DNA from: Candidatus Finniella inopinata
GTDB lineage: Bacteria > Pseudomonadota > Alphaproteobacteria > Paracaedibacterales > CAIULA01
Direction of reading: 5' to 3'
Length of the DNA: 24,000 nt
NCBI RefSeq assembly: GCF_004210305.1
Contig: NZ_SCFB01000004.1
Coordinates: forward strand, 289,554 to 313,553
Part shown: positions 18,648-23,328 of the stretch, one piece after another
Numbering within the stretch: the first letter of the stretch is position 1
Layout: every line of letters starts with the position of its first letter
Notes under the pieces: generated by a model
What the model was told of the DNA's origin: nothing
Database searches by the model: none
The model's input: the letters and a program-made list of their open reading frames with translations, nothing else
Position numbers and translations under genes: made by a program

Positions 18648-20360
18648 TTACTTAATGATTGATATCTTACCATTTCTTAATTCTAACACCCTATTTGCAT
18701 TTTGCAGAATAGAGTAATCGTGAGAAATAATAAGAGATGTTTTTCCTGTGATAAATGCGTGAATGTTTGATTGTATTATGTTTTTTACATCCGTATCTAA
18801 AGAATTTGTATGTTCATCAATTAAGCAATTCAAGCTATCTTTTAAAAAAAATCTTGCGATAGAAACTCTTTGTTTTTCTCCTCCAGATAATTTCATACCT
18901 CTTTCCGCCGCGACTGTTTTATATTGATCATGCATACTATCTATAGAATTACTCAAACAAGCTAATTCAACAGCTTCTTTTACCTTTTTAAAATCTGAAC
19001 TAGAGTTTGATATAAGAACATTGTTATAAATTGTATCATTGAATATAGATGTATTTTGAGGAATAATATTGAATAATCTAGCAATTTCTTCTTGAGAAAT
19101 ATCAGAAATGTTATTTCCATTAATTAAAATTTCTCCACTACAAAGCTTACGAAGTTTTAATATAAGCATCATTATCGTGGATTTTCCTATACCACTTTCT
19201 CCAATCAAGCCTGTGATTTTACCAGCCTCCAATGTAAATGATACATCATTTAAAATAACTTTTTTGTCATAGTGGAATGAAGCATTAATGAAATCTATCC
19301 TTAGAGGTTGTGATAATAATTTTACTGATGTTATCTTTTCCTCTTGATTTGTCATTAAAAAAAAGTCCAACAACTGTTTTAGATCAATAATAGACTTTTT
19401 TAAGTCACTCAATACAAAACCTAAAGCATTTATTGGGTTTATAAATAGAGTTAAATACCCATGTATTAAGATAAAATCTGAAAATTTTAATTCTCTAGTA
19501 TAAACATAATAACCAAGAATTGCAGTTATCATTGTAAAACATAAGCCTAATATTGACGCCTGCGCAAATAATAAAAAATCGTATATTTTTTGAACATTTA
19601 TTTCGGACAAAGCTCTCTCTTTTAATATTACATCTGCTCGTTCCATTATTTGTTTTTTTATATCAAAAAGCTTGACTGCCTCATAATTCATAATCCAATC
19701 GTGGATAGTTGAATCAGTTTCCATATCTTTAATATTAGCTTTTTCGCGAGCTTTTAATGCCAACTTGGTTGTGTAAAAAGCAAAAGAAAAAATCAATAAA
19801 AATGATGTCAATAAAAGAAAGGCATAAAATATCGGGTATGTCATCAAAAGAATTAAAGTAACTATGAATATCTCTAACACCAAAGGAATAACAATAAAAA
19901 AAGTAGTCCAAAATATAGGAGGAATGCTGTTTTTAGCTTTAACGAATAGATTGGAAAATTTTCCTACACTGTAATCAATATATTGATAGAAAGACAAATT
20001 AAATATATGAGATAAGGTTCTATGTATTAAGTGTAAAGAAAATTTTTGCTTTATTACTGAGATAAAGAATTCTTTTATTATTGGGGAAAAATTGTTTAAT
20101 ATCCATATTATCGAATAAAAAGCGATAGCATAGAAAATACTATATATAGATTCTTGCGTATTTAGAGAATCAAGCACATTTTTAAACAGATATGGCAATG
20201 TAACGTTTATTAAAGATGCTAAGATAAGTAGCGAAAAGCTTAACAGACAAACAACTTTATTTTCTGATAATAACTCCCAAAAAATCGGTTTAAAAACGGC
20301 TAAATACTTCTTTAATCTATCGTTGGGACCAAAAATAATCTTCACTGTATCTAACCTCAC
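18648..20360 (-). CDS. McjD-type ABC exporter (fused permease-ATPase), lasso peptide export/self-immunity
   Basis: The 570-aa ORF has an N-terminal multi-TM domain, Walker A GESGIGKST, signature LSGGEKQRVSIAR, Walker B CLIDE and H-loop IISHD. It is the last gene of the A-A-B-C-D operon. Confidence 0.85.
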   Translation of the reverse strand: MRLDTVKIIFGPNDRLKKYLAVFKPIFWELLSENKVVCLLSFSLLILASLINVTLPYLFKNVLDSLNTQESIYSIFYAIAFYSIIWILNNFSPIIKEFFISVIKQKFSLHLIHRTLSHIFNLSFYQYIDYSVGKFSNLFVKAKNSIPPIFWTTFFIVIPLVLEIFIVTLILLMTYPIFYAFLLLTSFLLIFSFAFYTTKLALKAREKANIKDMETDSTIHDWIMNYEAVKLFDIKKQIMERADVILKERALSEINVQKIYDFLLFAQASILGLCFTMITAILGYYVYTRELKFSDFILIHGYLTLFINPINALGFVLSDLKKSIIDLKQLLDFFLMTNQEEKITSVKLLSQPLRIDFINASFHYDKKVILNDVSFTLEAGKITGLIGESGIGKSTIMMLILKLRKLCSGEILINGNNISDISQEEIARLFNIIPQNTSIFNDTIYNNVLISNSSSDFKKVKEAVELACLSNSIDSMHDQYKTVAAERGMKLSGGEKQRVSIARFFLKDSLNCLIDEHTNSLDTDVKNIIQSNIHAFITGKTSLIISHDYSILQNANRVLELRNGKISIIK

Positions 20361-20396
20361 TAGTAAAATTCATTTAGTTTTTATTGTAGAATTTAA

Positions 20397-22235
20397 TTAC
20401 AATCCCCAGTCACGACACCATAACTCCACGGAAATTAAGTTAAGGATAGAATGTAATTCATCAACTTTACCACCTCTTACCATCTCAATATGTTCTTCAA
20501 GAATTCTTGTATTTAAGATTTTTTGTTTTGCGCAATAGCCATCTAAACATAATGCATAAATTTCTCTAATATTTTGTTCTATCCCTCTTTGTAACATTCC
20601 TGAGGTCTCACCTTTAGTGCTCCTTAAAACTATATTGTTTTTAAAAAAATTCCTAATTTCCTCACGAAATGGTAGTCTTGTATCAAACTTATCAAATGAT
20701 TCATATACTGGTAATGCTAAAGCAAACTCAACCAAAGGCTGTGCAAAAAAGGGGTATATAGTTGGTACTCTATTAAGCTTCTCAGAGACTTTTGTTTGAT
20801 TTACTCCTTCATAAATAGAAAGAACCTGAATGGCCTTCGCTGGAGGACAATTCTTCAAATCTTCAAAAAAATAAGGATAAATAGCATCCCGATCATATTC
20901 AAGATTATGAAATTCAGGCAAAAGCCATTTTGGTTTCCCAAAATTTAGCAAGTCATGTTGCTGATGATCGCCTCTGTAATATTTCCATAAAGCTTGAATA
21001 TTATCTTTCAATACCATTGCCAATGGGATTTTATGAAGGGCACATAATTCAATAATTTTTTTAGTAATCCCCTTATTTTTATGTTTAATCCAATAATCAG
21101 CTATTGATTTATAAACAGTATTTCCTTGGCAAAACAAATGATCACCACCATGACCACTCCAAAAAACGGTATCCCCATTCTTAAGCATAATATTTTCTTG
21201 CTCAATGATTGAACGCCGGTTGAGAAGAGATACATGGGGCTTATCAAACCTCATATACATATTACTAGATTGCATTAAAGAATACGGATTGTCCCAATCA
21301 TAGAAATTTAAATTTATACCCAGGGAATCAGCAATTCTGGTAGCTTCTTTAGATTCGTCAGATGAAGAAACCTCTAAGTCTCTCAAATTAAGCGCTTCTA
21401 TTAGATGTTTTGTAGGTTTAAGATGCTTTAAGGCCATCAACAGAGAACTTGAATCGCTACCACCAGAAAGAAATAGGGATGTGTTATGATTTTCTTTGAT
21501 CTGAGCAGAGATAACATCAAAAAAAACTTCTAAACATCCCTTATTTTTGCTATCCAGTATTTTAGTATTACAAGGGTTCCAAAACTCAGTTATCTCAAAA
21601 TTATCATTGGTGATTATAATGCAATTACCATGGGGTAATTCTTTTATTCCTGAAAAAGGAGTCGTGTTTGAATTTAGAAGTCCTCCCATACTGCTTAGCT
21701 GAGATACAAAATAATTGATTGAAATATTTTTCTCTATTTGGTCCGCAAGGCACCATAAGTCTGAAGAAAATAAAATACCTTGTTCCGTTTCTGCATAAAA
21801 CAGCGAACTATAGCCAATTGGGTCTGGGAAAATATAAATTTTCTTGTTTTCCAAATCCTGGCATAGCAGAATATACTGCCCCCAAAAATTTTCAGATAAA
21901 TATTGACCTTTTGTCTCTACTATTTTTCTTATTATATTTACTTCTAAAAAATTCACTTTTTTGGATGATTCTGTGCTAGTGCTTTTATTATATAAATTTC
22001 CAGCCAAAAACCCTTTATATGAGGTTTTTGAATCGGAAGCTTCTATTATAAAAAAATCGTAATATGATTGTTGGCAACCTTTACGTCTTCCTGCAATAAC
22101 TTGGGAGAATGGTGTTTCAATAATAGTTTTATTTTCACTTATCGCGGGGGATACCAAATTTATGGTTTTATTTTTAATAGCATCCGTTATAAAACTTTTT
22201 TTTGAATAAAAGATTCCTGAAAAAATTACATTCAT
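20397..22235 (-). CDS. Lasso peptide cyclase (asparagine-synthetase-like, McjC-type)
   Basis: The 612-aa ORF has the AsnB-type PP-loop LFLSGGSDSSSLL. Its size and its position between the B and D genes fit a lasso C protein. Confidence 0.8.
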   Translation of the reverse strand: MNVIFSGIFYSKKSFITDAIKNKTINLVSPAISENKTIIETPFSQVIAGRRKGCQQSYYDFFIIEASDSKTSYKGFLAGNLYNKSTSTESSKKVNFLEVNIIRKIVETKGQYLSENFWGQYILLCQDLENKKIYIFPDPIGYSSLFYAETEQGILFSSDLWCLADQIEKNISINYFVSQLSSMGGLLNSNTTPFSGIKELPHGNCIIITNDNFEITEFWNPCNTKILDSKNKGCLEVFFDVISAQIKENHNTSLFLSGGSDSSSLLMALKHLKPTKHLIEALNLRDLEVSSSDESKEATRIADSLGINLNFYDWDNPYSLMQSSNMYMRFDKPHVSLLNRRSIIEQENIMLKNGDTVFWSGHGGDHLFCQGNTVYKSIADYWIKHKNKGITKKIIELCALHKIPLAMVLKDNIQALWKYYRGDHQQHDLLNFGKPKWLLPEFHNLEYDRDAIYPYFFEDLKNCPPAKAIQVLSIYEGVNQTKVSEKLNRVPTIYPFFAQPLVEFALALPVYESFDKFDTRLPFREEIRNFFKNNIVLRSTKGETSGMLQRGIEQNIREIYALCLDGYCAKQKILNTRILEEHIEMVRGGKVDELHSILNLISVELWCRDWGL

Positions 22236-22257
22236 TGTATATTAAAAAACCTAAAAA

Positions 22258-23025: not shown

Positions 23026-23029
23026 TCAA

Positions 23030-23164
23030 TTAATGACAGTTACAATACTTAGAGCCAAAGTTTTCAAAACTAGTACAACCATTTCCGAGAGTCATTTCTG
23101 ACGCTGCACCAAGAGATACAAACAACTGACTGATTTTTTTTACTATATTTTCATTTGTCTTCAT
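23030..23164 (-). CDS. Lasso peptide precursor A1 (44 aa), not in the ORF track
   Basis: Hand translation gives MKTNENIVKKISQLFVSLGAASEMTL / GNGCTSFENFGSKYCNCH. It has Thr at -2, Gly1 and Glu8, which fits an 8-residue macrolactam. The 18-aa core has three Cys. Confidence 0.8.
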   Translation of the reverse strand: MKTNENIVKKISQLFVSLGAASEMTLGNGCTSFENFGSKYCNCH

Positions 23165-23223
23165 ATTAAAACCTATTTATTAAGTTAATAAAGCTTCAAA
23201 ACAGAGGATTTCAACAACCTAAA

Positions 23224-23328
23224 TCACGCCCATTTCATACCAAAGTTTTCAAAACTATTACTACACGTCCCGAGAGTCATCTCCGAAGCCGCACCAAGAG
23301 ATACAAACAACTGAATATTATTCATCAT
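23224..23328 (-). CDS. Lasso peptide precursor A2 (34 aa), not in the ORF track
   Basis: Hand translation gives MMNNIQLFVSLGAASEMTL / GTCSNSFENFGMKWA. The RBS AAGGAAGG lies 5 nt upstream. The leader segment QLFVSLGAASEMTLG is identical to that of A1. It has Thr-2, Gly1 and Glu8. Confidence 0.8.
   Translation of the reverse strand: MMNNIQLFVSLGAASEMTLGTCSNSFENFGMKWA

Follow-up and report, generated by a model that had tools for sequence, protein, structure and literature searches.

Five open reading frames (ORFs) lie co-directionally on the minus strand between positions 18648 and 23328 of a 24,000-nucleotide stretch of the Candidatus Finniella inopinata genome (contig NZ_SCFB01000004.1, positions 289,554 to 313,553; hereafter the window, to whose numbering coordinates refer unless another locus is named). 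They stand in the order A2-A1-B-C-D, with gaps of 59, 4, 22 and 36 bp between successive genes, and encode two small candidate precursors, a protease-like protein (B), an asparagine-synthetase-like cyclase (C) and a half-size ATP-binding cassette (ABC) exporter (D; Table 1). All five had been picked out in an original prediction made from the letters of the DNA; they are present where it placed them, and every motif that it quoted in B, C and D was located in the translations. Matches to family hidden Markov models, invariant catalytic residues, the anatomy of the precursors, related loci and a comparison with mcjBCD support the reading of these genes as a lasso peptide cluster. Judged from sequence, we put the probability at roughly 85% that they form an intact class-II-type lasso operon that was horizontally acquired into the Finniella inopinata chromosome.

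At the level of its sequence, the protease half of B is proven. The protein scores 79.2 bits (E 3e-22) against the NCBIfam model lasso_biosyn_B2 (NF033537), for which the cutoff is 33 bits, and residues 131-251 match Pfam Transglut_core3 (PF13471) at 2e-19. The motifs MCLAF, AHAWV and VND lie at 194, 226 and 237, and Cys195, His227 and Asp239 are invariant in an alignment of 10 sequences. The AlphaFold model of B (predicted local distance difference test, pLDDT, 83.8) has an N-terminal beta-sheet/helix domain, whose top-probability PDB matches in Foldseek are lasso B1 leader-binding proteins, namely 6jx3_B (probability 0.97, template modelling (TM) score 0.62) and TbiB1, 5v1v_A (probability 0.93, TM 0.58), with both TM scores normalised to the target. 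The next matches are recognition element (RRE) domains of other enzymes acting on peptides that ribosomes make and that are modified after translation (RiPPs), and TbiB1 is also the only PDB match of the B sequence profile, at positions 5-82. Against an RRE assignment stand the weak E values of both signals (about 0.13 in Foldseek and 0.34 for the profile) and the lack of any match between B and the Pfam PqqD/RRE model. The original prediction had proposed a search for a PF13471-type protease joined to a PqqD-like RRE; the former was found, with lasso_biosyn_B2 besides, and the PqqD-like model gave no match. The two weak signals are concordant, and we regard B as a probable B1-B2 fusion. NCBI annotates B as 'lasso peptide biosynthesis B2 protein', and its gene call begins at the internal Met10 (22998), giving 246 residues, which is probably the true start.

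The cyclase assignment of C follows from a score of 53.8 bits (E 3e-14) against Pfam Asn_synthase (PF00733), above the Pfam cutoff of 21 bits, and from matches at 4e-22 and 5e-18 to NCBIfam lasso-type cyclase models, which are models of named lasso and macrolactam cyclases. Its PP-loop, SGGSDS, occupies residues 257-262, and S257-G-G-x-D261-S262 is invariant in an alignment of 9 sequences. The N-terminus, MNVIFSG, lacks the catalytic Cys of a true glutamine-hydrolysing AsnB. Both B and C give significant matches to lasso maturation families, those of C lying below the curated cutoffs; this was the point on which the original prediction had staked its call. D has the half-transporter architecture that was likewise foreseen, with ABC_membrane over residues 39-309 (3e-17) and ABC_tran over residues 370-519 (2e-26); a Walker A motif (GESGIGKST, 387), signature (LSGGEKQR, 491), Walker B motif (LIDE, 513) and H-loop (ISHD, 545) are all present. 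By analogy, D is presumed to be both exporter and immunity protein. Its start is uncertain, being either the GTG at 20360 or, in another gene call, 15 nt further downstream.

The anatomy of the two precursors agrees with these assignments. The leaders of A1 and A2 have in common the segment QLFVSLGAASEMTL, which ends in ...SLGAASEMTL and is followed by Gly. The predicted A2 core, GTCSNSFENFGMKWA, comprises 15 residues, with a Gly1-Glu8 ring and a 7-residue tail; the predicted A1 core, GNGCTSFENFGSKYCNCH, comprises 18, with the same ring, a 10-residue tail and three Cys. Cutting after Leu(-1) leaves Thr(-2), Gly1 and Glu8 in both, and Glu8 in both cores predicts an 8-residue Gly1-Glu8 ring, as in microcin J25 (MccJ25). 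The predicted monoisotopic masses, less H2O, are 1659.681 Da for the A2 product and 1948.729 Da for the A1 product. Over the 14 leader codons in common plus Gly1 the two genes differ at 5 nucleotides, each of them a synonymous difference (chance P about 0.001), and their cores differ by 8 amino acids. By this comparison A1 and A2 are an old duplication, and a leader that is kept while the core varies is what would be expected of a working RiPP system. The match of A1 to the albusnodin-family lasso precursor model is weak (E 0.003, below cutoff). Disulfide-bearing lasso classes (I, III and IV) were considered for the three-Cys A1 and not adopted, as the Cys positions are unconserved in the family.

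Beside homologous B/C genes at 11 distinct related loci we found 19 further candidate precursors, all of them short ORFs. Each conforms to ...(L/I)G-x-(A/V)-x-x-(L/M/I)-T-x-G and has an acidic core position 8, which is Glu in 18 and Asp in the remaining one, a copy at locus L008; Thr(-2) and Gly1 are kept throughout. The closest relative of the cluster, a scaffold from an uncultured organism (ENA ERZ23499410; L005), encodes three cores, GDGNGDFENFGCKWNKK, GNGANTFENFGSKWAGK and GDGDDTFENFGCKWKKQ, of the pattern G-x5-F-E-N-F-G-x-K-W. The residues F7-E8-N9-F10-G11-x-K13-(W/Y)14, common to the A1, A2 and L005 cores, define a small peptide family. A literature search turned up no paper with the FENFG motif, and a search of JGI (Joint Genome Institute) metagenome contigs no more FENFG precursors. 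What appears to be new here is the cores themselves and this FENFGxK(W/Y) family, common to Finniella and one metagenome scaffold.

Taken together, these features suggest how the cluster would work. Transcription of the operon would start at a promoter some 40 bp upstream of A2, and the RRE-like domain at the N-terminus of B would, judging from the fold, bind both precursors by their ...SLGAASEMTL leader. By family rules the Cys195/His227/Asp239 protease, with Thr(-2) as its guide, would then cut behind Leu(-1) and so expose Gly1. C would use ATP to adenylate the Glu8 side chain by way of its PP-loop and, during threading of the tail, would join Glu8 and the Gly1 amine, to yield lassos of 15 (1659.68 Da) and 18 residues (1948.73 Da) with 8-residue rings. 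D, if it acts as McjD does, would export the products and in so doing protect the producer. That the predicted peptides are antibacterial, for instance through the RNA polymerase inhibition and TonB-dependent uptake of MccJ25-type peptides, is an assumption, as no sequence feature shows a target.

For comparison with the best-known system of this architecture, authentic mcjABCD was found on E. coli plasmids by way of the MccJ25 precursor and compared by pairwise BLASTP. Both systems consist of a precursor, a fused B protease, an asparagine-synthetase-like cyclase C and a half-size ABC exporter D, and both have Thr(-2) and an 8-residue Gly1-Glu8 ring (the MccJ25 core begins GGAGHVPE). Finniella B aligns with McjB at 37% identity over the 59 C-terminal catalytic residues only (2e-13), its N-terminal half remaining unaligned; the identity of C to McjC is 22% over 470 residues (5e-12), PP-loop on PP-loop, and that of D to McjD is 29% over 425 residues (7e-32). 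The two differ in that mcjA is divergent from mcjBCD whereas the Finniella genes are co-directional and include two precursors, in leader length (19-26 residues against 37 in MccJ25), and in the membrane domain of D, which in Finniella is nearer to Atm1-type exporters. The description 'mcj-type' in the original prediction therefore holds for the architecture and not as a claim of close kinship, the two systems being very distantly related. Its view that the cores are novel stood up against MccJ25, to whose core they are unrelated in sequence. The first plasmid match, taken for mcjC, proved to belong to another E. coli cluster, ordered A-C-B-D and with a core beginning GTGGGSIIE. This lasso-like cluster, distinct from mcj (plasmid NZ_CP027324.1, 3433-7544), encodes a 62-residue precursor with the predicted core GTGGGSIIEGSYTVYRCDGGSVPSRPFGPPFCP (Gly1-Glu9), and occurs on at least 16 E. 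coli plasmids, beside a colicin E1-family immunity gene.

A likeness of another kind links A2 to chaxapeptin and sungsanpin of Streptomyces, which are 15 residues long and have an 8-residue ring. The chaxapeptin precursor, ...VGEFSEDTL/GFGSKPLDSFGLNFF (PMC6856326), and Finniella A2, ...SLGAASEMTL/GTCSNSFENFGMKWA, have in common G(-8), S(-5), E(-4), T(-2), L(-1), G1, S4, an acidic residue 8, F10, G11 and an aromatic residue 14. The cores are identical at 4 of 15 residues, and the ring acceptor is Asp in chaxapeptin and Glu in A2; the chaxapeptin cluster encodes no transporter (PMC6856326). The resemblance may reflect general lasso constraints and is offered as a lead only.

An exhaustive HMMER search revealed relatives in 124 cluster representatives at E<=1e-30, almost all of them metagenome proteins, the best being 42%, 39% and 35% identical. 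Those with names, at 28-42% identity, come from alphaproteobacterial metagenome-assembled genomes (MAGs), a Babeliales (Dependentiae) MAG, a TM6 MAG and an uncultured Rickettsiaceae MAG; sphingomonad and caulobacter genomes reach only 20-25%. A scan of genome contigs with C alone confirmed no relative, and an alignment-based rescan did find relatives; a word-indexed protein search with the C alignment gave nothing beyond the first seven. The exact C protein occurs in one genome only. The closest locus found, L005, is 43% identical in both B and C, and its three precursors, with the leader ...SLG.A.ELTL and cores G-x5-FENFG-x-KW, belong to the peptide family of A1 and A2. It differs in having another ABC protein (24% identity to D), in placing two precursors downstream of the ABC gene and in a natively low guanine-plus-cytosine (GC) context. 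Its neighbours include ankyrin-repeat, ParE and transposase genes.

Two related loci show further arrangements. Positions 1-8775 of L003 (GCA_021733385.1) hold two lasso gene sets on one contig: a first, C'-D, with the precursor ...LTQ/GPRGNSFEQSMAYQRG, and a second with another C, a divergent B and the precursor ...LTK/GVWGHWHEYGGKPEPR. Both adjoin a MobA/MobL relaxase gene and a TraD-like gene, which suggests, from gene content, that they may lie on a conjugative element. On contig_9159 of ENA ERZ25039586 (L052, 5001-10186), four precursor genes in tandem lie between two convergent cyclase genes, and one B gene is present as well; the precursors all have TLG/..E8 cores, for example GRGGKYLESLRRTFKKHPWNPV.

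The composition of the cluster sets it apart from its surroundings. Its GC content is 0.309 against 0.484 for positions 1-6700 of the window, and GC at third codon positions (GC3) is 0.23-0.27 against 0.47-0.57 for the host genes mfd, accA and sbt. The genes lie in a sharply bounded low-GC block, the outer border of which was read on a longer contig, L001, from one Logan assembly with the same DNA; there GC rises again to about 0.45 on either side. Inside the block and upstream of the precursors lies a decayed IS200-like insertion sequence (IS), whose Y1_Tnp domain is matched at 2e-16 in the repaired reading frame. Low GC and GC3, sharp edges and the IS200 remnant are evidence of recent horizontal acquisition, as the original prediction had proposed for what it saw as an AT-rich block, and point to the block as the acquired unit. 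A low-GC donor would fit, since the native GC of related loci is 0.31-0.34 (L005, 0.32; the TM6 locus L014; the Rickettsiaceae locus L015).

Upstream of A2 the region's best sigma-70-like match, which is a match to consensus only, precedes a good AAGGAAGG ribosome-binding site. Across the region such matches number 18 where 26.5 are expected; this absence of any excess weakens the promoter call. A tandem direct repeat just upstream of the promoter-like site, at 1661-1700 of L001, may, speculatively, bind a regulator. The operon is also bracketed almost exactly by an imperfect inverted repeat, at 1514-1532 and 6587-6605 of L001, which could be the relic of a mobile unit or a product of chance in AT-rich DNA.

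Table 1. Features of the lasso cluster and its surroundings, in window coordinates.
Feature	Coordinates	Strand	Details
Precursor A2	23224-23328	-	34 aa; leader MMNNIQLFVSLGAASEMTL + predicted core GTCSNSFENFGMKWA
Precursor A1	23030-23164	-	44 aa; leader MKTNENIVKKISQLFVSLGAASEMTL + predicted core GNGCTSFENFGSKYCNCH
B	22258-23025	-	255 aa; RRE-like part (about 10-100) fused to Cys protease part (131-251)
C	20397-22235	-	612 aa; asparagine-synthetase-like cyclase
D	18648-20360	-	570 aa; half-size ABC exporter
Sigma-70-like promoter match	23369-23396	-	TTGACT-16 nt-TATCAT, 10/12; 40 bp upstream of A2 start
Tandem 20-nt direct repeat	23411-23450	-	AGTCAAATTRATTTTTTAAA x2; just upstream of promoter-like site
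Low-GC block	18411-24000, on to about 24311		about 5.9 kb; GC 0.26-0.37; sharp edges
IS200-like (Y1 transposase) pseudogene	23660-24000, past window end	-	frameshift and in-frame stops
Imperfect inverted repeat	23579-23597 and 18506-18524		19 nt, 84% complementary
84-aa ORF	18122-18376	-	no known domain
287-aa ORF	17301-18164	-	no known domain
69-aa ORF	16807-17016	-	truncated colicin-E3-type Cytotoxic ribosomal RNA nuclease domain; E 2e-20, profile positions 3-58/80
123-aa ORF	16298-16669	-	candidate immunity protein
ParD-like (RHH_1) antitoxin and ParE toxin pair	15703-16247	+
RebB-domain ORF	13461-13787	-	E 1.5e-29
RebB-domain ORF	13074-13421	-	E 2.9e-28
RebB-domain ORF	12443-12778	-	E 8.5e-5
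Phage-type integrase	10779-11942	+
DDE transposase, intact	9219-10367	-	DDE_Tnp_1_assoc + DDE_Tnp_1
ORFs of 448, 248 and 387 aa	6966-9055 and 14198-15361	+	no Pfam match

Beyond the low-GC block, the ORFs from 16298 to 18376, which separate the lasso cluster from the ParDE module, have the look of a polymorphic toxin broken into fragments: the truncated Cytotoxic ORF has two ORFs without known domain upstream of it and a candidate immunity gene downstream. A ParE gene is also found near the L005 lasso locus and on the MccJ25 plasmid. Further away, an intact DDE transposase gene stands just before the phage-type integrase, and the ORFs without Pfam match complete the list. No tRNA gene was found in the window, and an attachment site for the island is not visible within it.

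Candidatus Finniella inopinata, of the family Paracaedibacteraceae (Holosporales), is a cytoplasmic inhabitant of the amoeboflagellate Viridiraptor invadens (PMC11909080). The host of the cluster is an obligate endosymbiont, and the guess in the original prediction of an intracellular symbiont was right. The R-body genes from which that guess had been drawn are likewise confirmed, as three ORFs with strong or moderate RebB-domain matches that adjoin the integrase gene and have a host-like GC of 0.48; the L001 contig has one additional called RebB gene between them. R-body genes were already known for Finniella inopinata, in which R-bodies have never been seen, and the toxin of the killer trait is still unidentified (PMC11909080). 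The view in the prediction that such a cluster would be unexpected in an intracellular symbiont found no support. Amoebophilus asiaticus has one (Aasi_0899-0902), already reported in 2010, with homologues about 50-61% identical in Paracaedibacter symbiosus and Odyssella thessalonicensis (PMC8831229), both of them members of the Paracaedibacteraceae like Finniella. Candidatus Megaira carries another (PMC10132079). With lasso clusters published for protist symbionts, Finniella's own family included, their presence here is not surprising. The amoeba-endosymbiont clusters of Amoebophilus, Paracaedibacter and Odyssella resemble that of Finniella in belonging to obligate intracellular symbionts of protists. 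They are IS-associated and thought to be mobile (PMC8831229, PMC3423634), those of Amoebophilus being flanked by IS elements (PMC3423634), and were likened to the Finniella cluster by published descriptions only. None of the three genera turned up among our relatives with names, and a literature search found no paper that brings Finniella and lasso peptides together.

It is tempting to speculate that the cluster is functional and that its products act in symbiosis, on the host or on naive host cells and possibly together with the R-body genes, instead of being antibacterial in the classical sense. The nearest relatives belong to lineages of intracellular associates of protists or come from symbiont-type loci (uncultured Rickettsiaceae, TM6/Babeliales, alphaproteobacterial MAGs), one relative scaffold carries ankyrin-repeat and ParE genes, and a role in host interaction has been proposed for the lasso cluster of amoeba symbionts, the expression of which goes up in the late and the extracellular stages (PMC8831229). 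The R-body genes are part of the same integrase-bearing island, at a distance of about 5 kb, and the toxin behind the killer trait has yet to be identified (PMC11909080). Nevertheless, among 51 related loci (509 kb) no homologue of Reb, integrase, ParE, Cytotoxic or other island genes co-occurs with the lasso genes. Moreover, the lasso block has sharp borders of its own and a GC of 0.31 against 0.48 for Reb, and these separate borders of composition indicate an insertion independent of the Reb genes. No sequence feature points to a eukaryotic target. A symbiotic role of this kind is therefore rather unlikely. A functional link between lasso and R-body genes was rejected as unsupported, given the lack of co-occurrence and the sharp difference in composition, and stands as a low-probability speculation.

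Several results weigh against an intact and functional lasso operon, beginning with the short A2 leader of 19 residues. The scores of C lie far below the curated NCBIfam cutoffs for named cyclases (65 against 525 and 78 against 300), which marks C as a divergent member. Pseudogenes are strewn over the surrounding island (IS200, the fragmented toxin), and decay is plausible in a reductive genome. The cluster could in principle be a recently landed passenger, an AT-rich mobile fragment that is silent or decaying and from which no lasso peptide is made: a frameshifted IS200 transposase sits in the same block, the 69-residue Cytotoxic fragment and orphan ORFs lie just downstream, the strong compositional mismatch implies a recent arrival, and the exact C protein is confined to one genome. 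Yet none of the five ORFs is truncated and the catalytic motifs are all intact, and the A1 and A2 leaders have diverged synonymously only while the cores diversified, which argues for selection on a working RiPP, even if that selection may predate the transfer. Furthermore, the homologous-type cluster of Amoebophilus is transcribed and regulated through the infection cycle (PMC8831229). We regard a non-functional passenger as improbable.

The remaining counter-evidence concerns D. Among solved structures its membrane domain is closest to Atm1, ABCB7 and ABCB6 (E 7e-24 to 1e-13), and no McjD chain is found among its 22 PDB matches at E<=1e-3; its NCBIfam matches are generic MsbA-like and below cutoff; and the ABC protein of the closest B/C relatives has about 24% identity to D. 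That D might on these grounds be an Atm1-like metal or thiol exporter merely downstream of the lasso genes, with export and immunity provided otherwise or absent, is very improbable, since the GC of D (0.277) is the lowest in the block and D follows C directly on the same strand, is 31-32% identical to ABC proteins embedded in lasso operons of two unrelated lineages (L003 and the TM6 MAG locus L014), and aligns both with authentic McjD, part of the membrane domain included, and with the D of the other E. coli lasso cluster (L053), here over 531 residues. In L003 the D-type gene overlaps the cyclase gene by 4 bp. By these comparisons, D is mosaic across the lasso family.

As an acquired lasso operon, the Finniella cluster is a divergent addition to a known kind of lasso system, in a setting with precedent, and does not amount to a system of a new kind; part of it is already recognised by standard annotation. 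Lasso peptides form stable scaffolds whose activities include antibiotic action and binding to receptors, and two uncharacterised FENFGxK(W/Y) cores from an unculturable lineage are reasonable targets for heterologous production. A further conjecture, and an improbable one, is that the cluster belongs to a mobile lasso lineage that passes between unrelated bacteria living inside protists (Holosporales, Rickettsiales, Dependentiae/Babeliales), with FENFGxK(W/Y) peptides that act in symbiosis. If this were true, their targets would be, for example, competing symbionts in the same host or uninfected host cells, and the peptide could be a small stable toxin that accompanies R-bodies in the manner of a killer trait and not a conventional bacteriocin. 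The cluster adds to the published lasso cases in obligate endosymbionts of protists, and the presence of its nearest relatives in other symbiont-like genomes supports the idea of a mobile gene pool, peptide toxins included, among the intracellular bacteria of protists.

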